DNA of 64,000 nt from an uncultured Ardenticatenaceae bacterium (GCA_964389925.1 CAYMGE010000002.1:47729-111728), one strand, 5' to 3'; shown: positions 25,673 to 63,787, counted from the first letter of the stretch. Program-made: numbers and translations. The notes: generated by a model not told the origin, from the letters alone.

Positions 25673-25885
25673 AATGACCCATCAATATGTGTCGTGCCTT
25701 TATGACGACAGCGACTACTGTAAATAATTTGCACTTTGTAACCAATAATATCCGTGTGAAATGGGATGCGAAACGACGATTTATATCTTAGCATAGTGGT
25801 AAAAATCGCAATATGTTGGGATAATGCACCAACACTTTCTTATACGCACTATATAGAGACCCAACTTGTTGAATGGAGAAATATT

Positions 25886-32319: not shown

Positions 32320-32323
32320 TTGC

Positions 32324-32342
32324 CTCAATTGCCAAAGAGAGA
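32324..32342. repeat. Left arm of a perfect 19-bp inverted repeat flanking the twin peptide genes
   Basis: CTCAATTGCCAAAGAGAGA is the exact reverse complement of 32718-32736. It overlaps the SD region of the nucleotidyltransferase gene. Confidence 0.9.
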
Positions 32343-40363: not shown

Positions 40364-41047
40364 TTAAGTTTCAGGTGTTGAAAATAAGCTAACCAGCCTT
40401 GCGACCACAAACGTCAAATACAAAACACCAAGCAACGCCTGTAGCTGCGTCACCGCCCGCGCCCACGGACTAAGCGGTATGACATCCCCAAATCCCACTG
40501 TTGTTAACACGCTAGTGCTGTAATAAATCAGTGTTTGCCATGGAAATGTTTCACCAACTTGCGTAACGTTATCTGAAAAAGCGTGGTGTCCACCCGTTTG
40601 CATAAATGTAATCGTTTCAATCGAATCGTATATAGGCATGAAAATGGAGCCAATCAGCAGATAAACGGCAGAGGCAGCCAATAAGACACCTGTTGTGATG
40701 CTTTCTGCTTTGAGAATATAAACGGATAGCATTGCCACAAGCCCAAATTGAAAAATCGTTACAATGAGGTAGCCTACTAGCAGCGGCCAGCTTGCACTGG
40801 GGAGGAAGAACGAAATTACAGCGGTCACACCCCACAAGGCACCCAAACCCATCAATGCGTGTCGAATCTTTCGATAATCGCGTGCAGAGAGAATGCCTAG
40901 CACCATTTGCGCTACAGCGAGTAGCTGGTAGAGCAGGATCATGTTTGGCAGGCTCCGCCCATCGACTGCCCCAATATAGGTTATCGGCCACAAAGTTTGT
41001 ACGAGGAGAATGAAAAGAAACAGATAGGGTAGGGCGCGTTCGTCCAT
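40364..41047 (-). CDS. Potassium-channel-like ion transport protein
   Basis: 227 aa, about 6 TM helices, pore/selectivity filter TTVGFGDV. No RCK domain. Confidence 0.8.
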   Translation of the reverse strand: MDERALPYLFLFILLVQTLWPITYIGAVDGRSLPNMILLYQLLAVAQMVLGILSARDYRKIRHALMGLGALWGVTAVISFFLPSASWPLLVGYLIVTIFQFGLVAMLSVYILKAESITTGVLLAASAVYLLIGSIFMPIYDSIETITFMQTGGHHAFSDNVTQVGETFPWQTLIYYSTSVLTTVGFGDVIPLSPWARAVTQLQALLGVLYLTFVVARLVSLFSTPET

Positions 41048-41087: not shown

Positions 41088-42281
41088 CTAGTTTATATCA
41101 CCGACTATTGTATTGGGAATAAACTCACAAAACGAAAATCGCATCAAATAGGGGTGCAAAAATGAGCGGTCAATCGTCGGACAATCAAGCCCTTCCTCCG
41201 TTAAAATAGCCGCCGTCTTGCAAGCATCGAATACAGGTTTGGGCTTGAACATGTAGATCGGCGCACGTAGTAAGTGGCGCAAAACTGACCAGAGCTTTTT
41301 ATCCCGCTCTGCCCGCCCTCGCTGTTTAATCGCCACGACCCATTCACTGTAGGGAACCTCTTTGAGAGGATAACCATTCTCACAGATGGCGTGCCAAAAG
41401 GTGCGCCACTCGGTCTGCTGCGGATTGCAGATGTGAAAAATTTGCCCAGACAGATGAGATTGTTGTGAAAGGGAGATAATGGCGCGGCTGGCGAAATCGA
41501 CGGGGATCAGGTTGAGGGCGGTTTCGGCCGATGGAAAAGCCCCCAACTGTACACAAGCTTGCACAATCGTCCCCAGCAAATCCCCAAACTGTGTCATGAT
41601 TCCCGTTTGGCTATGCCCCCAAATACGTCCTGCGCGATGAATCGTCACAGGCAGCCCGCGCCTGTGAGCCATGCGAACCAACTCCTCCGCGACCCATTTG
41701 CTCTGCTTATAGCCGCCGCGCATCGAGCCATCATCCGCGATTGGCTCCTCCTCTGTTACCGTTTTGCCGACATACCGATCACTAAGGTAAACCCCCAATG
41801 TCGAGACAAAGTGAACGGGTTTTGTTTTGTGCTGACTGGCGAGGCGCAACACTTCTTGCGTTCCCAAAACGTTGCTTGGTTTTAATCGCGAGTAGGGGTA
41901 CATCGCGTTGACTTGTGCGCCGTTGTGATAGATCACATCGACGCGCTCTGCCAATTCGCCGTAACGGTCGCCCAAGCCTAAGCAAGGCTGGGCTAAGTCA
42001 CCGATGACGGGGAGGATGCGTTCGGCCGATTCCTCACGCCATATCTCATAAAATTGCAGCTTGCGCTTGAGCCGCTCCATCCCGCTTGCCTCATCGTCAC
42101 CGCGAATCAGACAGTAGATGGCGGCATCCGTTGTGCGTAGCAACTCGTCGAGCAGATAGGCTCCGAGAAAGCCCGTTGCGCCCGTCAAAAAAATGTAGGC
42201 AGCTTTTGCTGGTTCTGCTGGTTTTGTAAACTGAATAGAGGGATCGAGCACCGCCTCTGTGTGCAGGTCAATTGAACTCAT
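41088..42281 (-). CDS. Stand-alone thioester-reductase-type SDR (NRPS/PKS terminal reductase homologue)
   Basis: 397 aa. FLTGATGFLGAYLLDELL Rossmann motif, YKQSKWVAE (YxxxK). No attached carrier domain. Confidence 0.85.
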   Translation of the reverse strand: MSSIDLHTEAVLDPSIQFTKPAEPAKAAYIFLTGATGFLGAYLLDELLRTTDAAIYCLIRGDDEASGMERLKRKLQFYEIWREESAERILPVIGDLAQPCLGLGDRYGELAERVDVIYHNGAQVNAMYPYSRLKPSNVLGTQEVLRLASQHKTKPVHFVSTLGVYLSDRYVGKTVTEEEPIADDGSMRGGYKQSKWVAEELVRMAHRRGLPVTIHRAGRIWGHSQTGIMTQFGDLLGTIVQACVQLGAFPSAETALNLIPVDFASRAIISLSQQSHLSGQIFHICNPQQTEWRTFWHAICENGYPLKEVPYSEWVVAIKQRGRAERDKKLWSVLRHLLRAPIYMFKPKPVFDACKTAAILTEEGLDCPTIDRSFLHPYLMRFSFCEFIPNTIVGDIN

Positions 42282-42283
42282 TG

Positions 42284-43891
42284 TTATAATGGCATGTTGC
42301 CGTGCTTTTTGGGGAGGCTGTTGTCCCGCTTGTTGCGAAGCATTTTGAGAGCGCGATGCAGATAATCTCGCGTTTCAGCAGGCTCGATGATGTCATCGAC
42401 ATAACCATATTCGGCCGCCACAAATGGATTGGCGAACGTCTGGCGATAGTCGGCGGTGAGGGCTGTTTTTGTGGCGACCGGATCGGCCGATTGTGCCAAC
42501 TCACGCCGAAAAATGATGTTGACTGCACCATCTGGCCCCATCACGGCGAGTTCGGCCGAAGGCCATGCCAGCACCAAATCCGCGCCGATCTGTTTGCAGT
42601 TCATCGTCAAATACGCCCCACCATACGCTTTGCGCGTCACCACCGTGATTTTTGGCACGGTTGCCTCACAAAACGCAAAGAGCAACTTGGCTCCTTCCCG
42701 AATAATGCCGCCCTGCTCTTGGTCAAGACCCGGCATAAAGCCCGGCACATCCTCTAGCACAATCAATGGAATGTTGAACGCATCGCAAAAGCGCACAAAT
42801 CGCGCCCCTTTGCGACTCGCCGCAATGTCAAGCGCACCTGCTAGCACCAGTGGTTGATTGCCGACGATGCCAACAGTTTGCCCATTCATACGTGCAAATC
42901 CAACAACAATATTCTCCGCATAGTTGGGCTGAATCTCGTAAAATGACCCCTCATCCGCAAGCAGGGTGATTACTTCTTTGATGTCATACGGCTTGCTTGG
43001 GTTGGCTGGCACAACATTGTTCAGCTTATTGATGGTCGCTTTCGGCACCGTCGCATCCAGCGCGGTCGGCTCCTGCATATTATTGTCGGGCAGATAGCTC
43101 AACAGTTGCCGCGCCTCAAAAATCGCCGCGACATCGTTGGGACACGCCCGATGCGCCACACCGCTCATCTCTGTGTGCGTGCTGGCCCCACCTAACTCCT
43201 CAAACGTCGCCGTCTCGCCTGTCACTGCCTTGACCACGTCTGGCCCTGTGACAAACATCTGGCTTGTTTGCTCAACCATGAAAATAAAGTCGGTCAGGGC
43301 AGGGGAATACACTGCCCCACCTGCACACGGCCCCATGATGAGGCTAATCTGCGGAATCACGCCCGACCCCTTCACGTTGCGAAGAAAAATATCGGCGTAG
43401 CCCCCCAGCCCAACAACCCCCTCCTGAATACGTGCGCCACCGCTGTCGTTGATGCCGATAATCGGTGCGCCGTTTTGCAGAGCCATGTCGAAGACCTTGC
43501 AAATTTTGTCGGCGTGAACGCGGCTGACGCTGCCGCCAAAAACGGTGAAATCTTGACTGTAGACGTAGACTAATCGGCCGTCAACCTCCCCCCAGCCCGT
43601 GACCACGCTATCTCCCATGGCGCGCTTTTTGTCCATGCCAAAGTTGCGTTCCCGATGGCGCACAAACGGGTCAATCTCTTGAAACGTCCCCACGTCGAGC
43701 AAAAGCTCAATGCGCTCACGTGCCGTCAACTGCCCATTCGCACGACGACGAGCGGCGATCTTCTCGTTGCCGTGCGCCTGCGATTCAGCCCGCATTTGCT
43801 TGAGTTTGGTCACACGATTGATGGAGATGCCATGACCATTCACACCATTGTGATGATAGCCATTCTGTGCGGTCTTTGGATTCATTAACAT
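42284..43891 (-). CDS. Acyl-CoA carboxylase carboxyltransferase (beta) subunit, copy 1
   Basis: Start set at the ATG at 43891 (MLMNPK), avoiding overlap with the upstream PKS. Propionyl/methylmalonyl-CoA carboxyltransferase blocks [45 protein letters not shown]. Confidence 0.9.
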
Positions 43892-43928
43892 AAGGTTGCT
43901 CTGTCGATTTGCTTGGTTAGACGATACG

Positions 43929-46900
43929 TCAACGGTTTCTAACTTTGGATAGTCGTTTATCAATCCGCCGCTCTGAATCTATAATAAACGCCTCCAATAC
44001 CTGCTCAAACTCGCCAATCATCTTCTGAAATGTCACTTTATCAAACAGCGCAGGCTTATATTCCCACCAGCCCTGCAATGTTCTCTCTTGTTCCCAAATC
44101 ATTAGCCCAACGTCGGGCATTAGTGCCACATCGCCGTTCTGTTCCGATGTGGCTGTCAAGCCGTGCAACTCAAATTTGCTCGGCGCACTCGGCAAAAAGC
44201 TGACAAAGGCGCGATGTGGGAGTTCGTGCGGCTTGCGTTCTGGCTGGATCGCTCGAACAGCTTGGGTAAACGGGATGAGCTGATGCGAAATTGCCTCCGC
44301 CATCACGTTGCGAACGTGCGGCAGTAGCTCTTGAAACGGCTGATCCGCATTCATGCGAAGAATTAGCAAGCGGCTAAATTGACCGATTAGTGGCTCAGTT
44401 TCCCAGTGAGTGCGGTTGGCAAATGGGGTTGCAATTGTGATCTCGTCCTGTCCACTCAACTCATGTAGCCATTTTGCCATTGCCGCTTGAATGATGACGA
44501 ACAGCGTAGCACCCGTGCGTCGGGAGAGTAAATGCAGTTGGGTGGTGAGATCGGCCGAAAACTCAAACCACACCCTTTCTCCCACAAGTGTCGGCGTTGC
44601 AGGCCGTGGTCTATCCAACGGCAACGCCAACTGCGGCGGCTCAGTTGCCAACCAATCGCGCCAGTATTCCTGTGTTGTCTCCAACACATCGGGGGTCAAT
44701 GATTGCCGCTGATGATACGCATAGTCGGCGTACTGCAACGGCAGTTCGGGCAGAATGACGGGGTCATTTGTTGCGAAGCCAGCATAGAGCGTTGCGAGTT
44801 CATCGAAAAAGATGGTGAGCGACCACGCATCGGCCGCAATGTGATGTGGCGAGAAGAGCAGATGATGTACATTCTCCTCCAGCTTCACAACCGTCACGCG
44901 CAGCAGCGGCCCATTGTCAAAATCAAACCGTTTCTCCTGCACTTCCTCTCGCACCAACTTTGCCAATCTATCTGCTTGCTCACCTGTCGGCAACTGTGAC
45001 CAATTGAGCTGCTGTATCATTACTGATTCAGGAAGCGTGACCACCTGAACAGGTGCCCCACCAACAGCGGGGAACGTTGTCCGCAAACTCTCATGCCGCT
45101 CGACAAGGGCATCAAAGCTGGCTTGCAATGCTGTCATATCCAACGCGCCGACTAGACGGAAATTGAAAAATGTATTGCTGTTGCCGATGTAGTTGGGATT
45201 CGCATGGTGACGCATCCACATACGCTCTTGTTGTAGCGAAAGGGGAATGGTTTGGTTGCGTGATACAGGGGCAAGGTCGTTTTCGGGGGTGATGATGGGG
45301 ATTTCGGCCGAAATTCCATTCAGCCCCAACGCATCATGCGCCAAATAATTGCTCATCTCAGCGACCGTCGAATGCTCAAACGCCAGCGTTGGTGGCAGTG
45401 AGATTTGCAGGCTGCGCTTAAGTTGTTTGGTCAACTCAATTGACATCAGCGAATCCATCCCTATTTGGAAGAAATCCGCATTCACATCGATTAGTGCCAC
45501 ATCGCCAATTCCTAGCACGCCGGCGACCGTCTCGCGCACATGCTGATTGAGCTGCGCGGCCTGTTCATCCGTGTTTAATAAGGATAGTTGCTCCCAAACA
45601 GGTAACGTTGTTTGCGCCTCATACTGCTCCGCTGTTTGTAACTTCGCATAAAAAGCGGGCGCATCCTGTGTATGGGTGAAGTAGCGCGACCAGTTCATCG
45701 GCGTGACACCGACCTGCACAGCATCTTGACTCAGAAGATGAGAGAATGCCGTCAGCCCAAGCTCTGGCGCGATAAAGCCATACCCGATCTCTGCCAATCG
45801 CTGCTTGACTGGCTCGCTCAACGCTGCCGCCGCACCAATTTCGGCCCAGCCACCCCAGTTGATACTCAACGCTGTCAATCCTTGCGCCCGCCGATAGCGC
45901 ACAAACGAGTCGAGAAACGCATTCGCCGCTGCATGATTGGCCTGACCGACATTGCCCATCACGCCCACCATTGACGAGAACAGCACGAAAAAGTCGAGTT
46001 CATTATCCTTTGTCAACTCATGCAGGTTCAATGTTCCCTGCACTTTGGGAGCTAGCACCGTTTCAAAATTGCCCCAGTTTTGGTTGATGAGTGCGCCATC
46101 ACGCAGTACCCCCGCGCTGTGGACGACCCCTTTGAGCGGGAAGCGATCTTCGATTTGCGAAAGAGCCTTTGTCAGATCAGCCACCTTTGTCACATCCGCT
46201 TGTGCAGTGGTGACAGTTACGCCTTGCTTGGCGAGATTTTCCAACGCATTACGTGCTTCGGCCGATGGCTGACTGCGCCCGATGAGCAACAAATGGCGTG
46301 CGCCGCGCTCGGCTAACTCTTGTGCAACGCTCAACCCCAATCCGCGCAAGCCGCCCGTAATGAGATAGGTGGCGCGTGGGTCACACTCGATTGCGGTTGT
46401 TTCTGGTTTGGTTTGTTGCAATCGTGCCACATAGCGACCATCGGGGCGTAGAGCGATCTGCTCTTCATTTTCAGTAATGGTTGTGATCTCTTCGCAGAGG
46501 GTTGTCATGCTAGTTTCGGCCGAAATATCAACCCGCACACATCCCAACTCTGGATGCTCCAACCCAATCACTTTCCCCATCCCCCACAACGGCGCGTGTG
46601 CAAACCCGCCCACGCTGTCCTGCGCGGCAACCCCCTGAGCCTCTCGCGTCACCAACCATAACCCCGAAATATCAATTTGCGTTTGCGTCAACGTCTGTGT
46701 TAACGTCAACACCGACTGCCCCGTTAAATCAAAAGGCTTGTCATCCAAACTCCACAAATGGACAATTCCCGTTGTGTCGCGCGTAGCGTTGAGAAGTTGG
46801 GCATAGCTTGCCTGATCTTGCCCAACGCAAAATGCCCGTTCGCTAACTTCCTGAAATGTTTCTCCCGCGTAAATAAGTGTGGCTTGATCGCCGCGTTGCC

Positions 46901-49900
46901 GCATCTCGTTCGCCAGTGTCGCTGCGTGGCCTTTTTTGTCGGCAAAGATGAGCCATGATTGTCCTGTCGGCCGAAGTTGGGCAGGCAACGCTTGCGATTC
47001 CCACGAAATCTCATACAGCCAGTCGCGCCATGCGTCTGTGCTTTGGAGGGATTCGGCCGATGCCGCCCGCACCTCAAACCCCTCTATCCCAACCAGCACC
47101 GCCCCCACCTCATCCAAAAGCTGAATGTCCCATTTGTTCTCGTCAATCTGCCGCGTATAGCACCACCACGCAGCGACCTCGTGCGCGGACTGATAGAGAT
47201 GCAGGGCGCTGATCGCAAACGGCAGCTTCGTCTCATTCGCGCTCATCGCGCCAACCGCCTGAAAACACGCATCCAGCAGCGCGGGATGCAGCAAATAGCC
47301 ACTTGTGCGCTTCACTGCGTCGGGGAGGGCGAGCTGTGCGAGGGTTTCATTTTTGGTTCGCCACAATCCCGCCACCCATTGAAATTGTTCCCCAAATGTG
47401 ATCGTCTCATGCCTGTAAAGAGTATTCAGTTCGGCCGTTGCATCTCGACTAATCCGCTCTCGCAACGCTGCAATATCGATCTTCTGACGTGTTTCGGGGC
47501 TAGGATTTCCCGAAACGGCTCCAAGCATATGCGTCGTCGCCTCCCCTGTGGGATCAACAAAGCTAATCACCTTAAATTCCCCATCAGGCGACAAAACCAT
47601 CTGAACCGTGCGCTCTGTTTCTTCGGGCAGCACAAGTGCTTGCGGTAAAACGATGTCGCGCAATGTCTGTGCCGTTTGCTTATTCACCAGATTCGCCGCG
47701 CTCAACGCCAGCGACAAATAGCTCGCGCCCGGCGCAACCACCTCACCAAAAACGCGATGATCTGCCAAAAACGGCACGTCTTCAACGCTAAATGTCATCT
47801 CGAAGATCGTCTCTTTAATCGCGGGTGACTGCACCATCTTGCCAATCAGCGGGCGCAACGCCTCAACATTACGTTTCTTTTTCGGTGTGTCGATCCAGTA
47901 GCGTTGTCGCTGAAACGGGTATGTAGGCAACGTAATTTTTTTGTAGACAAAATCTCCGTCAACTGTCTGCCAATTGACTTCAACCTTACGTTCATACAGC
48001 TTGCCCAAGCTGCCTAATATATATTGAGAAGCGTTCTCTCCTTTCTTCAAACTAGGCAAATAGTCGATCTCAATGTCATCATTAATCGTCTGCCGCGCAA
48101 TTCCTAACAGCGTCGATTGCGGCCCCGCCTCTAGCAAAATGTTCACCTCCAGCTTTTCCAACGTCTGAACCGCATCGCCAAAACGCACTGTGTTCCGTAG
48201 CTGTGACCGCCAGTACGCGGGAGAGGTCAATTCCTCTTTGACGACGCGCCCCGTCATGCTGGACACGACGGGACAGGTTGGGGATGAAAGGGGGATGCGG
48301 CGCACGGCCGACTCAAAGCGAGCCAAAACAGGGTCGAGCATCGGGGAGTGCGCCGCGACGGGAATATCGAGTTTGCGCGTCTTAAATCCTGCCGCGCTAA
48401 GTTTCTCTGTAATCGCTGCGATGCCCGTATGACTGCCGGACAAAACAACCCCTTTTGGGCCGTTGATGACACCAACCGTCACATCGTCAAAATTGGCGAC
48501 ATAAGGGGCGACCTCTGTCTCGGTTGCCAGAATAGAGACCATGCTGCCTTCTGCGCGTTCCATCAACTGCCCGCGCAACGTCACCAGCCGCAACCCGTCC
48601 TCCAGCGCAATCACACCCGCCGTGTACGCCGCCGCATAATCCCCCAAGCTATGTCCCAACACAACATCTGGCTGCACACCCCACGATTTCCACAAATCTG
48701 CCAGCGCACACTCAATCGCGTAATTACTGGCCTGACCAACAGGATGCGATTCAAGCAGCTCATCGTTTTCGGTGTAGATGTAGTCGAGAAGGGACGAGCC
48801 GAACGCCTCCCGAAATGCAACGTCACAGCGATCAAGTCTGTCGCGGAAAAGCGGTTCCGTATCATACAGTTCGCGCCCCATGTTGACGTATTGGGAGCCT
48901 TGACCAGTGAAGAGGAAGGCGGTTTTTGGGGGTGCGTGGTGCGTGGTGCGTGGTGCGTGGAGTTGGGATTTTAGGGTTTCGGCCGAATCCGCCACGAACG
49001 ATGCCCGATAGTCAAAATGGGTGCGCCCGACATGCGAGGTGTAGGCTAAATCTGCCAAGTTCACGTCTGGATTTTCGGCAAGGAAAGTGCGGTATTTTTT
49101 CACATAATCACGTAAGGCGGGTTCGCTTTTTGCGGAGATGGTCAGCAGATGATGGGAGCGGATTGGTGTGTGGTCAGGCTGATTGGCAACGGGTGGAGCC
49201 TCGCCCACGATGACGTGCGCGTTAGTGCCGCTAACGCCAAACGAACTGACACCACCGATACGCTCATCGGCCGACCACTCAATCACGCTCTCTGGCACTT
49301 GCACATTCGCCGTCTCAAAGTCGATCAACGGATTGGGCGTGTTGAGGTGTAGATTGGGTGGAATTTTGCCATGTTGCACCGCCAGCGCGAGCTTCATCAC
49401 ACCCGCAACGCCCGCTGCGAATTCGAGATGACCGATATTCGTCTTGATTGAGCCGACGTAAAGTGGCTCTTCGCGCTTCTTGAACACGCCGCTGAGTGCG
49501 CCAATTTCAATTGGGTCGCCGAGCGGTGTGCCTGTGCCGTGTGCCTCAATGTAAGAAATCTGCGCTGGCTTGAGCCGCGCATCGGTCAGCGCACGCCGAA
49601 TGACACGCTCTTGCGATGGGCCATTTGGCACAGTCAATCCACCGCTGGGGCCATCCTGATTGATCGCCGTTCCGCGAATGGTCGCAATGATGTTGTCACC
49701 TGCTGCCTGTGCATCAGAGAGCCGTTTCAACAAAATCATGCCGCATCCTTCGCCGCGCACGTAGCCATTGGCAGCCGCGTCGAACGTTTTACAGCGAGTA
49801 TCGGCCGAAAGCGCGTTCCCGTTAGTCATCATCGTCGTGATGTCATCATCCAAAATCAGGTTGACACCCCCCGCTAACGCCGCGTCACACTCCCTGTTGC

Positions 49901-50579
49901 GAAGACTCTGACACGCTAAATGCAGCGAGGCTAGCGACGATGAACACGCTGTCTCAATCGAAACACATGGTCCCGTCAGCCCAAACAAGTAGGCGATGCG
50001 CCCTGCTGCTGTGCTGGCTGAGTTGCCTGTGATCGTGTAAAACTCGCGGGTTTGCGAAACTAACTGCTTGAGATATTCGCTGACCCCAATGCCGAGAAAG
50101 ACCCCCGTCTCACTATTATAGAGATCGCTGGGTACAACATTCGCCGCTTCCATCGCCTCCCATGCCGTTTCCAGCAATAGTCGATGTGTCGGATCCATCA
50201 CCACAACCTCACGCGGTGATAGCCCAAAAAAAAGTGGGTCAAATGTGTCTACCTGCTCTAAAAATCCCCCATGTAACCGCACCGACTGGTCGGCACGGTC
50301 GCTAAAGGTCGGCATGTCCGTCTTACGCATTGCGGGTAGTTCGATGATCGCATCCACGCCAGCGAGCAGCATCTCCCAGAATTGGGCAGATGTCTCAACA
50401 CCGCTTGGAAAGCGACATCCCATCCCGACGATTGCAATCGGTTCATGATAGGCGGATAGTTGTTTTTTATACTTCCGGATAACTTTGGCTGATTTTTGCA
50501 GCGCGGCGGTTAGCTGTTGCTCTTTATTAGATGAAGGCATGGCGTTTGTCCCAACAATGTTCAACAAGGTCTGACTCAT
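43929..50579 (-). CDS. Type I PKS with C-terminal NRPS condensation domain (KS-AT-DH-KR-ACP-C)
   Basis: The ORF-track start at 50618 is TTG; in-frame ATGs at 50579 and 50540. KS (ACSSSL, EAHGTGT, NIGH), AT (GHSLG), DH ([11 protein letters not shown]), KR (TGGLRGLG), ACP (GMDSL), C (HHIAADAWS). Confidence 0.95.
48931..48960. repeat. Tandem heptanucleotide repeat (GGTGCGT) x4.3 inside the PKS coding sequence
   Basis: GGTGCGTGGTGCGTGGTGCGTGGTGCGTGG. Read on the minus strand it encodes [11 protein letters not shown] in the KS-AT linker. Confidence 0.9.
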
Positions 50580-50895
50580 TGAACAGCGAGAACGCCTTTT
50601 TTGTGCAGATTTTGACAAGATTAGCGCAACGGTATTGGTTTCGCAATGTTGCCTTAGATGGAAGAGTTGTACAATAACACGCTGAAGGAATGTTTGATCG
50701 TGCCGACGATAGATGATTATGCGATCAAATTTACCTTACGATAATGGCGATTAGCGCAACACACGTTTGAATTAACACGTTTTGAGCAAGTTGGTTTCGC
50801 ACTCTAAAGAAATTAATGAGATTTCTCACAACTGAAAATCGGCCGAATATACTACGGGTTACAAGTATGGGACTAAACACGAGAAGAGTGATTTT

Positions 50896-55995: not shown

Positions 55996-56000
55996 CAACT

Positions 56001-59000
56001 ATGCAAAACGAACCTATCGCTATCATCGGCATGGCAGGGCTATTTCCAAATGCCCCCGATGTCCATACTTATTGGCACAACATTTTGAACAACGTGCCGG
56101 GCATTAGTGATCCCGCCAATGCCAATTGGGATACAAACATTCGCGGTGGCTATTTGGGCGATCTGGCACGCTTTAATCCAAAAAAGTTTGGCATAAAAGC
56201 ACGCGCCCTTGACGGCACAGAACCGGCTCAATGGCTAGCCCTCTCCATGGCAAAAGCGGCTCTCGATGATGCTGATTTTGACAGCTTCAAAACAGAGGCC
56301 ATTCGCGCCCGAACTGCCGTCATTTTGGGCAATGGTGCGTACATCAATCGCGGCAACACAACCCATTATCAAGCGGGAACCCTTGTGGATGAGACGGTTG
56401 AATTGATCGGCCGACTCAATCTAGGGCTAGAAGCCGAACAACTCAACGGCCTGCGTGATGAATTACAGAGCCATTTACCACCGCTCAACGCCCGTGTGGC
56501 ACGAGGATTGATCCCAAACATCATTGCGGGGCGTGTCGCCAATCGGCTCGACTTGATGGGCGGTGCGTACACTGTTGATGCGGCATGTGCATCGGCAATT
56601 TTCGCAATTGAGCAAGCGGTACGTGGCTTGCAGCGGGGGGAAATTGACTGCGCTATCGTCGGCGGTGCATATATCGCCAGCCCAAGCCCCATGACGAAAC
56701 TATTTGGGAAGCTGGGCATTGTCTCAGCAAATGGTCAAATTGAGCCATTTGGGGCGGGTGAAGGTGGCACGCTGCTTGGTGAAGGGATTGCGATGCTGGT
56801 GTTGCGTCGCCTCTCTGATACAGCCCCAAAGTCAGTTTATGCCGTGATTCGTGGGATTGGCACAGGTAGCGACGGTGGAGACATCAACGTACTTGCCCCT
56901 AAATTTCAGGGTGCAGTGCGGGTCATGCAAAAGGCTCTCGCTGATGCGGAGGTCGAAAAAGCGTCCATCGACCTGATTGAGTCACATGGGCTTGGCACAA
57001 AAGTGGGCGACCATACCGAATTTGCGGCGTTGGCAACCGTCTATGGTGGCAAAAAGTCGCGCATCATTGGGACAGTCAAGCCGATGACAGGACACACGAT
57101 GCCAGCGTCGGGGGCAAACGCGATTATCAAAGCAGCGTTGGCGATTCAAACGGGAACGTTGCCACCGACGATCAACGCGAGCAATCCCGATCCTAAGCTG
57201 GACTGGGAGAAGGCAAATATGCGTTTTTTGCAGAAATCGGCCGAATGGTCATCCCAAACACGTCGCGCCGCTGTCAACTCTTATGGCTTTGGCGGTGTGG
57301 CTGCACACGTCATTCTCGAAAACGCGCCGGCCGAAAAACAGCGCGAGACGTTGCCACAACCCATTCCACTCGACGAAAACGCGATTGTGTTGGAGACAAA
57401 TCGGCGCACGTTAGTTGTGTCAGATGAGTTCGTAGAGAAGTTGCAAGCGGCAAGTGAGTTCGTGGGTAGCGATGATGGGGGCAAAGTGGAAAGTGTCAGA
57501 ACGAATAAGAATAAAGAATCTAGGGAGGACAAGGTTGCAAGTTACAACTTGCAACTTGCAACTTCTCCAAAAGAGGGTGATATGAATTCTGTAATGAGTG
57601 ATTACTTTAATTTGATGGAGACATTTTTGCATGTGCAGCGCGACGTGATGCTGGCGGCGATGGGTGGGGAGATGCCCCCAATGATGGCACAACCACAACA
57701 GACTGTCTACGAGATACCACAGCAGCCAGCCCAACCACCTGCCCCACAACCTATTTATGAGCCATACACACCTCCGACCACTAATACAAATGGGCAGACA
57801 GCCGTCAAAGAGACCGTTGTGGAGGTTGCACCAACGGTGACATCACAATCGTCGGATAGTGGCGCGGATGCGATGCGTGACGCGCTGGTTGAGATTGTGG
57901 CGGTGCAGACGGGGTATCCGGCCGACATGATTGGGACTGATTTGGATTTAGAGGCAGAGTTGGGGATCGATTCGATTAAGCGGGTCGAGATTTTGACAGC
58001 GTTTCAGGAGCAGTTTGGGGATGCGGTACGCTCCGACCAGATGGATGATTTGTCAGAGTTGAAGACATTGGATGAGATTGTGGGGTTTGTCGGGGGGGAT
58101 AGCGCAAATTTTAAGCGAGGGGGAGCGGATGCCCCCGTCCTTGACTTTCCGTACATCCGCAACGTCGTGGCTCGTTCAGCAAATCACCTTGAAGTGACCA
58201 ATGTGACCGACGTACAGACTGAGATTTTGCTGCGAGACCACGCTTTTGGGCGGGGAGTATCGGCCGATCCAACAATAGTCGGCCTCCCCGTCCTTCCTAT
58301 GACTGGTGCCATCGAGATGATGGCTGAGGCAGCGCAACTGCTAGAGCCATCGCGTCAGTTGGTGGGCTTACGCGATGTGCGCTCGTTGCGCTGGATAACG
58401 GCTCCGAGCGGCGTTTTGCAAACGCGCACGGTTGCCGAGCGAACGGAGGAAGGGGTGAAAGTTCGCCTGTTTGTGGTGGGAGATCGGTTGCACGCGGCGG
58501 AGATGACTGTGCTTTTTGCGGCCGACTATCCGCTTCTCACATCTCAATCGACGGTTTGTGAGCAGACTGAAATCCGCTCCATCTGGGAGAACATTTATGC
58601 AGAGAGTGGGCTATTTCACGGGGAGGGGTTACAGAACATTCAGGAGATTAGTACCTATTCAGACGAGCATATTTGCGCCACCTTGCAAGTGAAGCCAAAC
58701 GAATGCTGGCTGCTTGACCCAATTTTGTTGGATGGGTTGGCACAACTATCGGGGTGTTGGGGGACGTTAACACAAGATGCGTTGGTGCTGCCCATGGCGA
58801 TTGAGGCGGTTGATTTTGCCGCTCCACTCAATTTGAGCGCAGGCAGCATCGTGCGCTGTGAGTCGCAGATGTCGATGGAAGATGGGCTTGCGGTCACAAA
58901 TTTACACCTATTCACTGGTGACAGGTTGCTGCTCACCACCACAGCGTGGCGCGGACAACTATTCGCACTACCGCAGCAGCTCACAGACTTTCTCCTCAAG

Positions 59001-59393
59001 CGATCTACAAACTGGTTGGGTAAATGGAAAAATGAGCAAATAAAAATAAACCGCAACGATTTTCCGTTACCTGTGTTCTCTAAAGCAGGTGGGGTTTGGA
59101 CGGACGCGCTGGCATTTGCCATCTTGCACCCAAAAGAGCGCGAAACATTTCAAACCATCACATTACCACCAGCACATAGATTAAAAATAATTTTACAGAT
59201 GATTGCCGCAAAAGAGTGGCTGCGGCGCAATGGGGTCGATGGTCTTTCGGCCGATATTCCCCTGTCTAAAACAGAGACCGGATTTTATTTCCGAGATTTT
59301 TACGTGGATGTTGTGGTTTCGGCCGAGAACATCATCGCGCAGAAAGCGGAAACGACATTTGAAAGAGAGAGAATGGATCATGATGAAAATTAG
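56001..59393 (+). CDS. PKS subunit KS-ACP-DH with C-terminal AcpS/PPTase-like segment
   Basis: 1130 aa. KS with Cys/His/His (DAACASA, ESHGLGT, GHTMPASG), ACP (LGIDSIKRVEIL), DH (LLRDHAFGRG...LPVLPMTG), C-terminal GVWTDA...IAAKEWLRRNG. Confidence 0.92.
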   Translation: MQNEPIAIIGMAGLFPNAPDVHTYWHNILNNVPGISDPANANWDTNIRGGYLGDLARFNPKKFGIKARALDGTEPAQWLALSMAKAALDDADFDSFKTEAIRARTAVILGNGAYINRGNTTHYQAGTLVDETVELIGRLNLGLEAEQLNGLRDELQSHLPPLNARVARGLIPNIIAGRVANRLDLMGGAYTVDAACASAIFAIEQAVRGLQRGEIDCAIVGGAYIASPSPMTKLFGKLGIVSANGQIEPFGAGEGGTLLGEGIAMLVLRRLSDTAPKSVYAVIRGIGTGSDGGDINVLAPKFQGAVRVMQKALADAEVEKASIDLIESHGLGTKVGDHTEFAALATVYGGKKSRIIGTVKPMTGHTMPASGANAIIKAALAIQTGTLPPTINASNPDPKLDWEKANMRFLQKSAEWSSQTRRAAVNSYGFGGVAAHVILENAPAEKQRETLPQPIPLDENAIVLETNRRTLVVSDEFVEKLQAASEFVGSDDGGKVESVRTNKNKESREDKVASYNLQLATSPKEGDMNSVMSDYFNLMETFLHVQRDVMLAAMGGEMPPMMAQPQQTVYEIPQQPAQPPAPQPIYEPYTPPTTNTNGQTAVKETVVEVAPTVTSQSSDSGADAMRDALVEIVAVQTGYPADMIGTDLDLEAELGIDSIKRVEILTAFQEQFGDAVRSDQMDDLSELKTLDEIVGFVGGDSANFKRGGADAPVLDFPYIRNVVARSANHLEVTNVTDVQTEILLRDHAFGRGVSADPTIVGLPVLPMTGAIEMMAEAAQLLEPSRQLVGLRDVRSLRWITAPSGVLQTRTVAERTEEGVKVRLFVVGDRLHAAEMTVLFAADYPLLTSQSTVCEQTEIRSIWENIYAESGLFHGEGLQNIQEISTYSDEHICATLQVKPNECWLLDPILLDGLAQLSGCWGTLTQDALVLPMAIEAVDFAAPLNLSAGSIVRCESQMSMEDGLAVTNLHLFTGDRLLLTTTAWRGQLFALPQQLTDFLLKRSTNWLGKWKNEQIKINRNDFPLPVFSKAGGVWTDALAFAILHPKERETFQTITLPPAHRLKIILQMIAAKEWLRRNGVDGLSADIPLSKTETGFYFRDFYVDVVVSAENIIAQKAETTFERERMDHDEN

Positions 59394-60984
59394 AGATGCA
59401 GCAAACGGTGTTCAAGACAAAACGAAAATCAATGGATTTGGCGGTGGTACGCACTGCCCAACGCCAGCGAGTAAGCTAGCCGACCTACGCAACCAAGCGC
59501 AGCAAGCGGGTAGTGCGCGTGTCGCAGAACGTCGTCAGGCGCAGGGCAAACTCAACGCCCGTGAGCGCATCGATATGCTGCTCGATCCCGGTTCATTTCA
59601 AGAACTTGACACCTTTATGCGCCACCGTGAGCGCAACTTTGGGATGGACAAAAAACGTCCCGTTGGCGACAGCGTGATTACAGGTTGGGGAACGATTGCG
59701 GGGCGACTCGTCTACGTTTACAGCCAAGATTTCACGACGTTTGGCGGCAGCGTCAGCCGTGTTCATGCGGATAAAATTTGCAAAGTGATGGATCTCGCGC
59801 TGGAGAACGGCGCACCGATTATCGGCATCAACGATAGTGGTGGCGCACGGATTCAGGAAGGCGTTGTTGGGCTAGGTGGCTATGGGGATATTTTCCTCCG
59901 CAACGTCAAAGCATCGGGCGTGATCCCGCAAATCAGTCTCATCATGGGGCCGTGTGCAGGTGGTGCTGTTTACTCACCAGCCCTGACCGATTTTATCGTG
60001 ATGGTTGAAGAGACGAGCCACATGTTCGTGACGGGGCCGGACGTAGTTGAAGCGGTGACGGGTGAAAAATGTACATTTGAGGAGCTAGGCGGGGCGCAGA
60101 CACATGCCAAAGAGAGCGGTGTCGCCCATGTGACGGCGAGCAATGAGTTTGAAGCGATTATGAAGGTGCGTGATCTGTTGGCGTATTTGCCCAACAACAA
60201 CACCGAACATGCAGCGACCGCTTATGAGATTGATCGGCCGAATACCACCACCCTCGACAACATCATCCCAGACAACCCCAACAAACCGTATGACATCAAA
60301 GACGTAATCACGGGCTTGGTCGATGTCGATTCTTTCTACGAAATTCACGCTGACTACGCCGAAAATATCGTCGTTGGCTTGGCGCGACTGAATGGCGAAA
60401 CGGTTGGCATTGTAGCAAATCAACCGCTGGTTTTAGCAGGCGTTTTGGACATTAACTCTAGCCGCAAAGGGGCGCGATTTGTGCGCTTCTGCGATGCGTT
60501 CAACATTCCGCTCGTCGTGCTAGAGGATGTGCCGGGCTTTATGCCGGGTATGGATCAGGAGCATAACGGCATTATCCGTGAAGGAGCCAAGCTGCTCTAT
60601 GCGTTCTGTGAGGCGACTGTGCCGAAAATCACCGTTGTGACGCGCAAAGCATACGGTGGCGCGTACCTGACGATGAACTCAAAGCATATTGGGGCCGACT
60701 TGTGCTTTGGATGGTGTTCGGCCGAGATCGCCGTCATGGGTCCCGATGGCGCGGTCAAAATTCTGTTCCGTCGTGAAATTGCGGAAGACCCATCTCAAAA
60801 ACCACTTTTGATTGAGGAGTACAAGCGTATGTTTGCCCATCCTTATGTGGCGGCCGAACATGGCTATTTAGATGACGTGATCGAGCCAAGCGAGACACGG
60901 GAAAAGGTTATGCTTGGGTTGCAAATGCTCCAAAACAAGCGCAAGCAAACACCGCCAAAGAAACACGGGAATATGCCGCTTTAG
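59380..60984 (+). CDS. Acyl-CoA carboxylase carboxyltransferase (beta) subunit, copy 2
   Basis: Start set at the ATGATG at 59380 (MMKIRDAANG), overlapping the upstream stop by 14 nt. Same blocks as copy 1, identical C-terminus PKKHGNMPL. Confidence 0.9.
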   Translation: MMKIRDAANGVQDKTKINGFGGGTHCPTPASKLADLRNQAQQAGSARVAERRQAQGKLNARERIDMLLDPGSFQELDTFMRHRERNFGMDKKRPVGDSVITGWGTIAGRLVYVYSQDFTTFGGSVSRVHADKICKVMDLALENGAPIIGINDSGGARIQEGVVGLGGYGDIFLRNVKASGVIPQISLIMGPCAGGAVYSPALTDFIVMVEETSHMFVTGPDVVEAVTGEKCTFEELGGAQTHAKESGVAHVTASNEFEAIMKVRDLLAYLPNNNTEHAATAYEIDRPNTTTLDNIIPDNPNKPYDIKDVITGLVDVDSFYEIHADYAENIVVGLARLNGETVGIVANQPLVLAGVLDINSSRKGARFVRFCDAFNIPLVVLEDVPGFMPGMDQEHNGIIREGAKLLYAFCEATVPKITVVTRKAYGGAYLTMNSKHIGADLCFGWCSAEIAVMGPDGAVKILFRREIAEDPSQKPLLIEEYKRMFAHPYVAAEHGYLDDVIEPSETREKVMLGLQMLQNKRKQTPPKKHGNMPL

Positions 60985-61023
60985 GCTCACCATAAATTTT
61001 AGACCGACCGACTGCAAAAGAAG

Positions 61024-61056
61024 ACGGCCTGCATCTGAGGATGTAGGCCGTTTTGT
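61024..61056 (+). terminator. Rho-independent terminator after the carboxyltransferase gene
   Basis: ACGGCCTGCAT / ATGTAGGCCGT stem (11 bp, one G-U), 6-nt loop, then TTTTGT. Confidence 0.65.
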
Positions 61057-61085
61057 ATCTTCGCGGCAACTGTGCGTACCTACCG

Positions 61086-61134
61086 TCTGCTACCTTAAAC
61101 GTGTGCAAAAGTGTGCAACACGCTATAAGTACCT
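61086..61134. repeat. 49-bp intergenic repeat, copy B
   Basis: TCTGCTACCTTAAACGTGTGCAAAAGTGTGCAACACGCTATAAGTACCT. 48/49 identical to 20118-20166. Confidence 0.85.
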
Positions 61135-61308
61135 CTGTCAACCCCTTTTTACAATCAGCTTGATCGCTCAGATGGTTGTGACGGATGTATTTCGGGGTAG
61201 AATTCGGTGGAAGTAAGAATAAGTTTTTGAAACAGTAGTAAGCGGCTTGCGGTGTCCGCTCGACCAGAGGTCAGCACCGAGTCCCGTTCACTGACTAGAT
61301 ATATAGCG

Positions 61309-61656
61309 ATGCTTACCCCAACGGAACTACGAGAACAGTGCTTGCGCCAAAAAGGGGCGTATGAAGATTTTCCATTTGGCTCTGATGTTGCGGTTTATAA
61401 GGTGATGGGCAAGATGTTTGCGCTCATCTCGGACAACGGCATCTCGCTCAAGTGTGAGCCGCTACTCGCTCAACTGCTGCGCGAAAAATACGCGGCTGTT
61501 ACCGCGGGCTATCATCTCAACAAACGCCACTGGAACTCAATTGAAATTGACGGCTCGGTTCCCAATGATGAGCTAATTGAGTTAATCGAGCATTCTTACG
61601 CACTCGTTGTCAAAAAGCTACGCAAAGCAGATCGAGAAAAATTACATTGCAAATAA
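61309..61656 (+). CDS. MmcQ/YjbR-family protein
   Basis: Start set at the ATG at 61309 (MLTPTELREQ). FPFGSDVAVYKVMGKMFALI and HLNKRHWNSI blocks typical of YjbR. Confidence 0.75.
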   Translation: MLTPTELREQCLRQKGAYEDFPFGSDVAVYKVMGKMFALISDNGISLKCEPLLAQLLREKYAAVTAGYHLNKRHWNSIEIDGSVPNDELIELIEHSYALVVKKLRKADREKLHCK

Positions 61657-61685
61657 CCTTTGGCCTCAAATAGAAAAATTTCATC

Positions 61686-62426
61686 ATGAACGGACAAACC
61701 ACACTAATCACAGGCGGCGGCGGCGGCATTGGCAGCGCGATTGCACGACGGCTGGCAGAGGCCGGATCACAAGTCGTCATCACCTACAATAGTAATGCAG
61801 AAAAGGCACAGCGTGCGCTCGACAGCTTGGCGGGTGATGGGCATTGGGCAGTACAAGCGTCGGTGAAAGACAGCCAGCGTATGCAAGCGTTGGCGGCCGA
61901 GATTGCAGAAAGGTACGGCCGACTCGATTTGGTCGTCAACAATGCGGGGGTGACAATACCTGTTCCACATGACGATCTCGACGGACTGGAAGACGATTGG
62001 ATCGACCACATTTTTCAAACCAACTGGCGCGGTTCATTTGCGACGACGCGAGCCTGCAAATCGCTTTTGATGGCGGGAGACGGCGGCACAATTGTCAACA
62101 TCTCCTCAATTGCGGGGCAGACGGGCGTTGGCAGCAATGTCGCTTACTGTGCATCAAAGGCTGCAATGGACTCGATGACGCGCTCGTTGGCGCGTGCGCT
62201 GGCTCCCAAAGTGCGCGTGGTAAGCGTCTCACCGGGCTGGGTGCTGGGAGAGTATGCCAAACGATTTCCGCAGGCGTACATCGACGAGCAAGCAAACGCC
62301 ACACCGCTCAAACGGTTGGCAACCCCTGAAGATGTCGCCGAAACGGTTTGGGCTGTTCACAATGCGCTGCCGATGGCGACAGGCGTGATCGTGCCGGTTG
62401 ATGGCGGTCGGCCGCTTGGCATCTAA
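61686..62426 (+). CDS. Short-chain dehydrogenase/reductase (FabG-like)
   Basis: 246 aa. TGGGGGIGSAIA, NNAG, YCASKAA catalytic YxxxK. Confidence 0.9.
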   Translation: MNGQTTLITGGGGGIGSAIARRLAEAGSQVVITYNSNAEKAQRALDSLAGDGHWAVQASVKDSQRMQALAAEIAERYGRLDLVVNNAGVTIPVPHDDLDGLEDDWIDHIFQTNWRGSFATTRACKSLLMAGDGGTIVNISSIAGQTGVGSNVAYCASKAAMDSMTRSLARALAPKVRVVSVSPGWVLGEYAKRFPQAYIDEQANATPLKRLATPEDVAETVWAVHNALPMATGVIVPVDGGRPLGI

Positions 62427-62445
62427 AACGATAAACCACACAACT

Positions 62446-62898
62446 ATGTTTACGTCAACTGTGCAACCCGACTGGATCGACCACAATGGTCACATGAATG
62501 TCGCCTACTACGTGCTGGCATTTGACTTGGCAACGGATGAGATGTATGAATGTTGGGGGCTGGGGCTTGATTATCCTGAGCGTGGCTATTCCGTCTATAC
62601 ATTGGGCATGAACGTCGATTATCGGGCAGAGATGTTGGCGGGAGAGCCGTTTCGTGTCGAGTCTGCTCTGATTGATTTTGATCACAAGCGCGTCCACTAT
62701 TTTCACACGATGTATCGCGGTGAGACGCAGGAAGTTGTGGCAACAAACGAATGTTTGGCGATGAACGTCAATTTAGCAACGCGGCGCTCGGCCGATTTTC
62801 CCCCAGACATCCAAGCAAAACTTGCCTCCATCAAATCAGATAACGTGCCAAGGAGCTTCGGCCGAAAATTACAAATCAGGAGAAAAGATGTCGCTTAA
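62446..62898 (+). CDS. Hotdog-fold (4HBT/YbgC-like) acyl-CoA thioesterase
   Basis: Start set at the ATG at 62446 (MFTSTVQPDWIDHNGHMNVAYY). Size of about 150 aa and the N-terminal D-x-N-x-H-(V/M)-N block are typical of 4HBT thioesterases. Confidence 0.75.
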   Translation: MFTSTVQPDWIDHNGHMNVAYYVLAFDLATDEMYECWGLGLDYPERGYSVYTLGMNVDYRAEMLAGEPFRVESALIDFDHKRVHYFHTMYRGETQEVVATNECLAMNVNLATRRSADFPPDIQAKLASIKSDNVPRSFGRKLQIRRKDVA

Positions 62899-63787
62899 TG
62901 TCGAGATACGCGAACCAAGTTTTAGAGACGTTGTGGAAATTGAACACGATCTCGAACAGCTCGCTACGGGCTTTGATTTCACCGAAGGCCCCATCTGGCA
63001 TCCAGCTTATCAAAGCGTGCTGTTCAGTGACATTATGGGCAACTCGCTGTTTAGCTGGTCGGCCGATGCTGGCATCGTCAAACGCAATCGTCACAGCTAC
63101 ATGGCGAATGGCAATGCCTACGATTTGCAGGGTCGCCTCATTACTTGCGAACATGCCACTAGCCGTTTGACGCGCACCGACCTCACAACAGGAACGTATG
63201 AGGTTCTCGCCTCTCACTTCGAGGGTAAACAGTTAAACAGCCCAAACGATGTCGTTGTGAAGTCAGATAGCACGATCTATTTCACTGATCCAACTAGCGG
63301 CCGAAGTGCCGGATTTGGCGTGCCACGTGAGCCTGAGCTGTCCTTTCGCGGCGTTTATCGGCTCAACCCGGAAAATGGTGCGCTAATGTTGCTGGTCGAT
63401 GATTTTTCAAAGCCAAATGGACTGTGTTTCTCACGTGATGAAAACCAGCTATTTGTCAATGATACGGACAGACTGCACATTCGCGTATTTGATGTTTTGG
63501 AAGACGGCACATTAGCAAATGGTCGCGTTTGGGCTGAGACGATTGGGACAGGCAAAGGTGTTCCCGACGGCATGAAGATCGACACGCAGGACAATATCTA
63601 CTGCTGTGGGCCGGGCGGCATTTACGTGTTCGATGCAAACGCCGTTTGTCTAGGCGTAATTCTCATGCCTGAGCAGACAGCCAACTTTGTGTTTGGGAAC
63701 GCTGATTTTCGCAGTCTATACGTTACGGCCTCAACCTCACTCTATCGTCTGCGCGTCCGTATTGCGGGACATCCGACATTTTTGTAA
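62888..63787 (+). CDS. SMP-30 / gluconolactonase / LRE-like beta-propeller protein
   Basis: Start set at the ATG at 62888 (AGGAGAAAAG upstream). EGPIWHP, NSPNDVVV, PNGLCFS, PDGMKID blocks. Confidence 0.85.
   Translation: MSLNVEIREPSFRDVVEIEHDLEQLATGFDFTEGPIWHPAYQSVLFSDIMGNSLFSWSADAGIVKRNRHSYMANGNAYDLQGRLITCEHATSRLTRTDLTTGTYEVLASHFEGKQLNSPNDVVVKSDSTIYFTDPTSGRSAGFGVPREPELSFRGVYRLNPENGALMLLVDDFSKPNGLCFSRDENQLFVNDTDRLHIRVFDVLEDGTLANGRVWAETIGTGKGVPDGMKIDTQDNIYCCGPGGIYVFDANAVCLGVILMPEQTANFVFGNADFRSLYVTASTSLYRLRVRIAGHPTFL

Follow-up and report, generated by a model that had tools for sequence, protein, structure and literature searches.

A reduced PfaA/ArsAD-like synthase and a PKS-C/thioester reductase operon, probably two separable units, lie back to back in an uncultured Ardenticatenaceae bacterium

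What kind of system is encoded at positions 41088-63787 of the DNA studied here, 64,000 nt from an uncultured Ardenticatenaceae bacterium (GCA_964389925.1 CAYMGE010000002.1:47729-111728), where genes of modular and of iterative polyketide synthase (PKS) type are crowded together? An original prediction, made from the sequence by eye, took them for a single integrated hybrid island. Its genes and domains were recovered by open reading frame (ORF) listing and by scans of this whole stretch, hereafter the window, with Pfam and NCBIfam hidden Markov models (HMMs); the architecture was upheld, with corrections at two bracketed terminal domains and at the start of one carboxyltransferase gene, and our searches, like the prediction, matched no characterised cluster. 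Our answer to the question is that the region probably comprises two evolutionarily separable biosynthetic operons, back to back. Unit A, on the plus strand, consists of PKS2, PKS3 and the carboxyltransferase (CT) gene CT2 and would be a reduced PfaA/ArsAD-like synthase; unit B, on the minus strand, consists of PKS1, CT1 and a stand-alone thioester reductase (TR) and would be the terminal module of a modular PKS line. Both units are variants of known machinery, uncharacterised and without a novel kind of system. The locus is real and very rare, and it sets a pfa/ArsAD-like synthase beside a PKS-C/TR operon with which it may cooperate. The domain content, deletions, gene-order conservation, selection and rarity on which we build are observed directly.

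The case for two units is made by gene order in related loci (labelled L). An uncultured Anaerolineae (Chloroflexota) metagenome-assembled genome (GCA_030425205.1, with the loci L001/L010) is the closest public relative of the window genome and gave the sole close match in a search of 185,579 species genomes. There the cassette of first subunit, second subunit and CT is flanked by arginyl-tRNA synthetase (ArgRS) and phosphoenolpyruvate (PEP) carboxylase genes, and its surroundings contain no PKS1-like gene. The same order recurs in L004/5, in L006 (where the CT is partial) and in L024, the last in a shuffled form, with ketosynthase (KS), acyltransferase (AT), ketoreductase (KR) and dehydratase (DH) as KS-AT-KR-DH, then KS with acyl carrier protein (ACP) as KS-ACP, then CT, and with neither enoyl reductase (ER) nor phosphopantetheinyl transferase (PPTase). 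Counting L025, which has the KS-ACP subunit and CT only, the cassette was seen in five other metagenomic lineages. In L025 these two genes (3085-10467) stand immediately 3' of urease and cobW genes, and no KS-AT-KR subunit lies upstream. The history of unit B is a separate one: the sole full-length ortholog of PKS1 is P0122 (67%), in L023, where the order is sulfotransferase, 2745-aa PKS, PKS1 ortholog, TR (68%) and Ion_trans_2 (59%), with no CT and no pfa-like genes; the sequencing run of that contig also has the relative's cassette, on a separate contig (L003). PKS1, TR and Ion_trans_2 are thus common to the window and L023, and in the window CT1 is inserted between PKS1 and TR, and the divergent pfa-like cassette occupies the place of L023's upstream PKS. 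The single integrated island is thus not supported, its two halves being unlinked in the closest relative.

Unit A, as far as its sequence tells, is best explained as a reduced member of the PfaA/ArsAD-like family of iterative type I fatty acid synthases (FAS) and PKSs, the "secondary lipid synthases". The original call of a PfaA-like KS-AT...KR protein was sound: the best NCBIfam model for PKS2 is TIGR02813 (omega_3_PfaA), with 963.3 bits under a curated cutoff of 1010.1, and PfaA is still the best model for PKS3, with 332 bits over the KS portion only. Equally sound was the absence of a carrier domain from PKS2, in which no PP-binding match was found by Pfam and none by a family-specific ACP HMM run with --max. 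The motif Y..LM.TFL..QRD[IV]M.AA.GG occurs in both PKS2 (~54480-54555, aa ~1195-1220) and PKS3 (~57600-57670, aa ~535-556). In relatives it stands ahead of ACP domains; in PKS2 no ACP comes after it, and there it has the look of a relic, left from an ACP linker now lost. The second KS, which the prediction had singled out as extra and fully catalytic, is indeed catalytic, its Cys-His-His being confirmed in PKS3, and unit A has two KSs that are catalytically competent by motif. In the nine loci checked the active-site Cys is kept in both KSs, as are both His motifs in every case where they were picked up by the pattern search; two more sequences gave no match to the Cys motif. A second catalytic KS is thus the norm of the family and no oddity.

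Deletions have shortened the synthase at both ends. The first-subunit partners of P0003 and P0004 (in L004 and L006; 2191 and 2309 aa) begin with tandem NMO-like domains, and the second NMO domain of the relatives bears a PfaD-like ECGGHIGPRSS motif. The N-terminus of PKS2 (aa 1-235) is homologous only to the first of the two tandem domains in L022, L004, L006 and L024; the second is missing from PKS2 and from its 79% identical relative, and the retained domain is without the loop aligning to the relatives' 'EAGG...' segment (alignment A2). Of the predicted "NMO/enoyl-reductase-like" N-terminus, homology to the first NMO domain thus stands (E 5e-13 to 5e-7), and the PfaD-like second domain has been deleted. 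A similar division applies to the "AcpS-like" tail of PKS3, which aligns upstream of the relatives' ACPS match (E 1e-15) and has lost the ACPS-matching half: P0003 and P0004 carry Pfam ACPS, and PKS3 and P0002 are without exactly that segment, bearing GVD[IV]E and WCAKE (alignment A1). With the second NMO domain and the ACPS half deleted, the window lineage is left without a cis ER and without a functional fused PPTase. The isolated N-terminal 237 aa of PKS2, C-terminal 144 aa of PKS3 and AT-KR linker matched no significant Pfam family, and searches of PDB sequences with the isolated vestigial ends gave at best E=0.17 to FabK/NMO and nothing for the PPTase. The homologous gene pair (alignments A1 and A2; vestiges at E 5e-13 and 1e-15) places the cassette in a two-subunit, ER/PPTase-fused iterative FAS family of ArsA/ArsD-like kind (Types M-P of Shulse & Allen), of whose complete ER and PPTase it is devoid. 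Wider pairs, NMO-KS-AT-(ACP)n-KR with KS-AT-(ACP)-DH-PPT, were found in Caldilineae, Streptomyces, Sporichthyaceae, Solirubrobacteraceae and Desulfobulbaceae and were partly detected in Amycolatopsis; tblastn domain maps gave the paired layout in L011, L016, L017, L020 and L022, and a partial pair in L021.

Rare as it is, unit A bears the signature of constraint. Full-length relatives of PKS3 number just three, P0002 (73%), P0003 (40%) and P0004 (38%), and their clusters (50% identity) were the only ones matched end to end when 1.84 billion representatives were searched exhaustively with phmmer. This search, like the full-length search with PKS1, was swamped by multi-module PKSs through their summed KS scores, and orthologs were separated by coverage and length. 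PKS2 is 79% identical to its L001 ortholog over the whole protein and 94% over the KS alone, where dN/dS is 0.03. Throughout unit A, dN/dS lies between 0.03 and 0.34 in every estimable domain (for the ACP and the first linker of PKS3 no estimate of dS was obtained), with 0.03-0.11 in the catalytic domains and CT2 and 0.21 and 0.34 in the vestiges, all of these values being rough, as dS is saturated (>1). They suggest that the vestigial domains, too, still evolve under purifying selection.

The third gene of the cassette, CT2, begins at about 59380 by comparison with the relative, and not at 59203 as in an earlier reading. Its product is 95% identical to the CT of L001 and 68% to that of L004, the synthases having meanwhile diverged to 40-48%, and its best solved match is Streptomyces PccB (1e-199; PDB 1XNV/1XNW). 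A CT comes after all six AT-less second subunits (window, L001/L010, L004/5, L006, L024 and L025), and none was found in the fetched flanks of six loci with an AT-bearing second subunit (L011, L016, L017, L020, L021 and L022). CT1 is 67-73% identical to every full-length cassette-type CT, which makes it an old paralogue in the same clade rather than a recent copy of CT2, and it is missing from the orthologous PKS1-TR locus, L023. The cassette CTs and CT1 share the motif GGAYLTMN, the Leu of which aligns with D422 of PccB; PccB structures with the mutations D422L, D422I and D422V score slightly better than the remaining PccB entries. In carboxylases of the PccB/AccB kind a hydrophobic residue at this position widens specificity to acetyl-CoA, and the Leu would fit malonyl-CoA supply, like accD6 in the mycobacterial FAS-II operon. 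Both accD6 (FAS-II) and accD4 (Pks13) are beta-subunit genes inside mycobacterial synthase operons, much as CT2 and CT1 are the last and the middle gene of theirs. As full-length PccB-like proteins, CT1 and CT2 resemble the beta subunits of lipid operons (Streptomyces PccB/AccB, mycobacterial AccD6 and AccD4), from which they differ by the Leu for Asp, by an Asn/Gly/His-rich extension and by the lack of an alpha or epsilon subunit at the locus. The extension, of low complexity, precedes the PccB-like core in the window (59380-59560 and 43790-43894), in L004 (13875-14000) and in L024 (8914-9050). One might speculate, with little confidence, that the CT-linked, AT-less synthases form a distinct and apparently very rare class in which the CT is an obligate catalytic partner, either replacing the second AT or making an alpha-carboxylated acyl extender, and that the ER-less version in the window cooperates with PKS1-CT1-TR towards an unseen keto/branched hybrid lipid of Anaerolineae.

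Turning to unit B, Pfam bears out the predicted KS-AT-DH-KR-ACP-C gene of more than 2200 aa, a single cis-AT module, C denoting a condensation domain. Across the locus, every KS, AT, DH, ACP, C and TR domain has its catalytic motifs unimpaired, and so does the KR of PKS2, the exception being the KR of PKS1: where solved KRs have their catalytic Tyr (gqgnYsaAN, gqpgYaaAN) it has a His, so that it lacks this mark of an active KR and the beta-keto group is predicted to stay. The Tyr to His change is kept in the ortholog P0122 (L023 14117-14644), with an apparently intact DH preceding it, and the VAAH AT is likewise common to both proteins; the change presumably was selected. The nearest solved structures to the C domain are the C domains of Txo2/Txo1, which are nonribosomal peptide synthetase (NRPS) proteins; its homologues do not exceed 45% identity and are for the most part C-A proteins, A being adenylation, and the homologue search gave ordinary NRPS C domains only and no informative PKS-C family. 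As the prediction had it, no partner of adenylation and peptidyl carrier protein (PCP) domains was found within the 64-kb window, and no A-PCP stands at the PKS1 locus of the window or of L023. TR has the motifs of a thioester reductase, GATGFLG (Rossmann) and YKQSK (YxxxK), and, again as predicted, no fused carrier. Between PKS1 and P0122 the N-terminal docking helix shows higher conservation than the average of the protein; the acidic C-terminal docking tail of L023's upstream PKS has no counterpart on PKS2 or PKS3, and the tail of PKS3 is unconserved. Taken together, these features argue for a modular partner of PKS1 that has its gene at another locus. In L023 (544-9750) a stand-alone sulfotransferase and the 2745-aa PKS come before the ortholog; that PKS starts with a loading region, made up of an unassigned stretch of 270 aa and an ACP, and continues as KS-AT-AT-DH-ER-KR-ACP. 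Polyketides can be released through acyl transfer by C or C-like domains, and with its ACP-C end and intact HHxxxD motif PKS1 is like other PKS modules that end in a condensation domain (PpsE with PapA5; PKS-NRPS junctions); unlike the PpsE/PapA5 type, it has an ordinary NRPS C domain, no acceptor module and a carrier-less, stand-alone reductase after it.

From these parts we infer substrates, a product and a possible feeding of unit B by unit A. In unit A, CT2 together with a biotin carboxylase/biotin carboxyl carrier protein (BCCP) encoded elsewhere would supply malonyl-CoA, which the single AT of PKS2 would load onto the single ACP of PKS3; we take this AT to be of malonyl type from its AAFH motif, following established knowledge of AT specificity. 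With the catalytic half of the fused PPTase gone, the ACP must be phosphopantetheinylated in trans. The two KSs would extend the chain iteratively, with the KR and the PKS-type DH processing each round and the cis ER deleted, and the product would probably be a long acyl chain that is unsaturated or incompletely reduced, barring an ER in trans. In unit B, PKS1 would add one extender, selected by its atypical VAAH AT, and the beta-keto group would probably be retained; the chain would then leave either by transfer to a nucleophile, an amine or an alcohol, at the NRPS-type C domain or by way of the stand-alone TR.

Could the two units nevertheless form one integrated hybrid pathway? The PfaA-like chain would then prime PKS1, or be reduced by TR to an aldehyde or alcohol that serves as the nucleophile of the C domain, and a long-chain keto-lipid, ester or amide would result. 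We consider this less likely than not. The operons are divergent and 355 bp apart, the pfa-like cassette sits in the position of the relative's upstream PKS, a cassette-type CT1 lies between PKS1 and TR in the window only, and in L022 a megasynthase of fatty acyl-AMP ligase (FAAL), ACP and KS stands directly upstream of a related pfa-like pair; zeamines, fabclavines and chitinimines offer precedents for hybrids of polyunsaturated fatty acid (PUFA)-synthase-like, PKS, NRPS and reductase parts (PMC13291983, PMC3547906). These points are met by the separate neighbourhoods of the units in the closest relative and by the conserved docking helix of PKS1, which fits a still-cognate modular partner and finds no matching tail on PKS2 or PKS3. 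No aminotransferase, adenylation domain or FAAL is adjacent, the nearest AMP-binding gene (25766-27826) being 13 kb off. A search of public sequencing runs found one run with ~5% of the window's words, in which relatives have ~90-95% nucleotide identity and the junction is uncovered. Contigs of this run, X1, match PKS2, PKS3 and CT2 (52482-60983) at ~90-95% nucleotide identity and a depth of 20-120, and almost nothing matches most of PKS1; such good coverage of unit A and poor coverage of unit B speak against one pathway and suggest a related population that has the cassette and either no unit B or a more divergent one. Several points weigh against our preferred reading of a reduced synthase beside a separable module. 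A chance adjacency of two PKS-type loci is unlikely, and this and the precise insertion of CT1 both favour a functional link. No independent contig spans the junction (50541-50895), in the 64-kb window we found no PPTase, no trans ER and no biotin carboxylase/BCCP (alpha) subunit, and saturation of dS blurs the evidence for constraint. Finally, the assignment to ArsA/ArsD is a putative one, by domain order and by the published description of Type P (PMC3098273).

The deletions in unit A raise the question of whether the locus is simply decaying, the losses of the ER, the PPTase and the upstream PKS amounting to pseudogenisation of both units. The catalytic parts of the ER and the PPTase are indeed deleted, the loader PKS and the sulfotransferase of L023 are missing beside the PKS1 of the window, and the KR of PKS1 has lost its Tyr. 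We nonetheless consider a non-functional remnant most unlikely, and reject pseudogene status: the open frames run unbroken over 2203, 1699 and 1130 codons in PKS1, PKS2 and PKS3 with all other catalytic motifs present, the same deletions and the same Tyr to His change are shared with a relative at 67-79% identity, dN/dS stays at 0.03-0.34, and L024 is an independent variant without ER and PPTase. An analogy to the enediyne synthases (PKSE), drawn in the original prediction, would make unit A a split polyene synthase whose conjugated product is released by the hotdog thioesterase downstream. Like SgcE/CalE8, unit A has the same sum of domains, has no cis ER in the window lineage and carries a DH of PKS type, not FabA type, and a 4HBT_2 hotdog thioesterase gene follows at 1.4 kb. 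It differs in being split and in having two active KSs, both of which are the norm of its own family, and in its truncated PPTase; PfaA is the best HMM for both KS proteins, with no PKSE model among the matches listed, and the cassette's relatives carry a full ER, so that the ancestor was reducing and FAS-like. The thioesterase matches generic hotdog PDB proteins, not CalE7/DynE7, and is no conserved neighbour, and no other genes like those of an enediyne cassette occur in the window. The analogy is accordingly very improbable. With neither a single polypeptide bearing a functional PPTase nor a thioesterase of CalE7/DynE7/SgcE10 type, the locus was rejected as a PKSE. That rejection extends only to PKSE membership, and an ER-less polyene as such may be compatible with what we see. 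We give no more credence to a pathway like that of HglE, in which the PfaA-like synthase and TR would yield a long-chain fatty alcohol or diol, later glycosylated. The alkyl chains of heterocyst glycolipids are made by a related FAS/PKS (PMC3098273), and a PfaA-like synthase and an NAD_binding_4 reductase do lie within the same 20 kb. There is, however, no glycosyltransferase in the window and no CLF-type KS, and the relative has its reductase beside PKS1 and apart from the cassette; TR is without the fused ACP that HglB/HetM carry. With no ACP-fused reductase, no KS-CLF-AT protein of HglC type and no glycosyltransferase in the window, membership of the heterocyst glycolipid (HglE/D/C/B) systems was rejected, and the earlier suggestion of such a product finds no backing here.

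Where, then, do the units stand among known systems? ArsA/ArsD makes C22-C26 acyl chains for phenolic lipids and is presumably a two-subunit iterative synthase with ER-, KS-, AT-, KR-, DH- and PPTase-type functions fused into two proteins, a putative likeness of domain layout to unit A. Such a layout is shown by L016, L017, L020 and L022 and partly by L021. Unit A departs from it in that its second subunit has no AT and has taken over the ACP, the catalytic parts of ER and PPTase are deleted and a CT has been added; type III PKS genes, neighbours of the ArsA/ArsD type, were not found within the window. The ArsA/ArsD of Azotobacter vinelandii is Type P of Shulse & Allen 2011 (PMC3098273), ArsA being the FAS and ArsD carrying the PPTase function (PMC4824345, PMC3098273). 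Compared with PfaA and the pfa-like "secondary lipid synthases" (Types A-T, PMC3098273), unit A has the same KS-AT...KR order, PfaA as top HMM and a PfaA-like LGIDSIKRVEI motif in its ACP, and with PfaA-type synthases it would share iterative, FAS-like synthesis. An ACC-component gene inside a pfa-like cluster is known from the Type R cluster of Koribacter (PMC3098273). Unit A is unlike the PfaA system in its score under the cutoff and in having, instead of tandem ACPs between AT and KR, a single ACP on the second protein; it is unlike the PUFA synthases (PfaABCD/E) in having no PfaB, no PfaC-type KS-CLF, a PKS-type and not a FabA-like DH, no PfaD ER and only vestiges of the fused ER and PPTase. 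The locus as a whole is like the zeamine, fabclavine and chitinimine hybrids (PMC3547906, PMC13291983) in that a pfa-like synthase stands by a modular PKS, a TR and a condensation domain; unlike them, it has no adenylation/PCP module and no aminotransferase, its synthase belongs to the two-subunit ER/PPTase-fused family and not to PfaABCD, and the linkage of its parts is unconserved in the closest relative.

New lipids continue to come from the pfa-like "secondary lipid" synthases and their PKS/NRPS hybrids, and the Chloroflexota are almost uncharted in this respect. Our locus offers a near-minimal two-subunit synthase, in which ER, PPTase, second AT and tandem ACPs appear dispensable under maintained selection. 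The strict co-occurrence of a PccB-like CT with the AT-less form is directly testable, and the three genes of unit A are small enough to express in order to learn which lipid is made by uncultured Anaerolineae. If the PKS-C/TR operon does use the product of unit A, it would represent a new head-to-tail logic of lipid assembly; if the units are independent, they counsel caution, as PKS genes that are neighbours in a window may belong to different clusters.

Table 1. Features of the two operons and their immediate neighbours, in window coordinates.
Feature	Position	Strand	Remarks
Unit A	50896-60984	+	PKS2, PKS3, CT2
PKS2	50896-55995	+	1699 aa; vestigial NMO-like domain, KS, AT, KR; no ACP
PKS2 vestigial NMO-like domain	50896-51600	+	homology to relatives' first NMO domain
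PKS2 KS	51622-52800	+	Pfam
PKS2 AT	53239-54093	+	Pfam; GHSYGE with AAFH, motifs read from sequence
PKS2 KR	55138-55818	+	Pfam; catalytic Tyr present
PKS3	56001-59393	+	1130 aa; KS, ACP, PKS-type DH, vestigial PPTase
PKS3 KS	56010-57179	+	Pfam; Cys-His-His
PKS3 ACP	57879-58088	+	Pfam; LGIDSIKRVEI
PKS3 DH	58206-58922	+	Pfam PS-DH; PKS-type, not FabA-type
PKS3 vestigial PPTase	58971-59390	+	N-terminal half only; alignment with relatives
CT2	59380-60984	+	534 aa; third cassette gene; PF01039 5e-199 over positions 3-493 of 493
Divergent intergenic region	50541-50895		355 bp, no ORF
Unit B	41088-50540	-	PKS1, CT1, TR
PKS1	43929-50540	-	called gene P0121, 2203 aa; ORF 43929-50618, 2229 aa
PKS1 KS	49344-50444	-	Pfam; Cys-His-His
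PKS1 AT	48024-48917	-	Pfam; GHSLG with VAAH
PKS1 DH	47043-47852	-	Pfam; HxxxGxxxxP
PKS1 KR	45840-46373	-	Pfam; QANHAAAN, catalytic Tyr replaced by His
PKS1 ACP	45342-45542	-	Pfam; GMDSL
PKS1 C	43959-45254	-	PF00668 1e-71 over positions 3-442 of 456; HHIAADA (HHxxxD)
CT1	42284-43963	-	PF01039 full length, 1e-189; acyl-CoA carboxylase beta-subunit type; probable start at ORF Met24/26, ~43888-43894
TR	41088-42281	-	397 aa; PF07993 NAD_binding_4 7e-68; TIGR01746 344 bits (cutoff 213)
Ion_trans_2 channel	40364-41047	-	PF07885; next to TR; probably not biosynthetic
YjbR, SDR, 4HBT_2 thioesterase, SMP-30/SGL	61252-63787	+	Pfam; probably outside both units

In the divergent intergenic region a sigma-70-like match was found at 50825-50853 (+), promoter-like and terminator matches of the scan occurring at chance frequency. 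Downstream of CT2, the SDR (short-chain dehydrogenase/reductase), hotdog thioesterase and SMP-30 genes had been put forward as tailoring or release enzymes. They are not conserved neighbours of the cassette: in L001 it is followed by PEP carboxylase, DUF3179 and NUDIX genes, with YjbR, SDR, 4HBT_2 and SGL absent there, and on this ground a tailoring role was rejected. A search past the end of the window by way of the SDR gene met only short contigs from other runs. A gene for an uncharacterised nucleotidyltransferase, NTP_transf_5, comes after the CT in L024 (10726-11607), and one is also present in the window (31120-32328), 19 kb from the cassette, which is probably a coincidence. Elsewhere the window holds housekeeping or unrelated genes, among them those for kinases, KatG, SRP54, ABC-F and rRNA methyltransferases. 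Three long ORFs, at 3100-4665, 23024-25672 and 27847-29100 (521, 882 and 417 aa), matched nothing in Pfam at E<=1e-8, and at 8801-14194 (-), with 5908-8766 and 14561-17827, three tandem Ser/Thr kinase genes stand by an S8 subtilase and a hybrid histidine kinase/response regulator.

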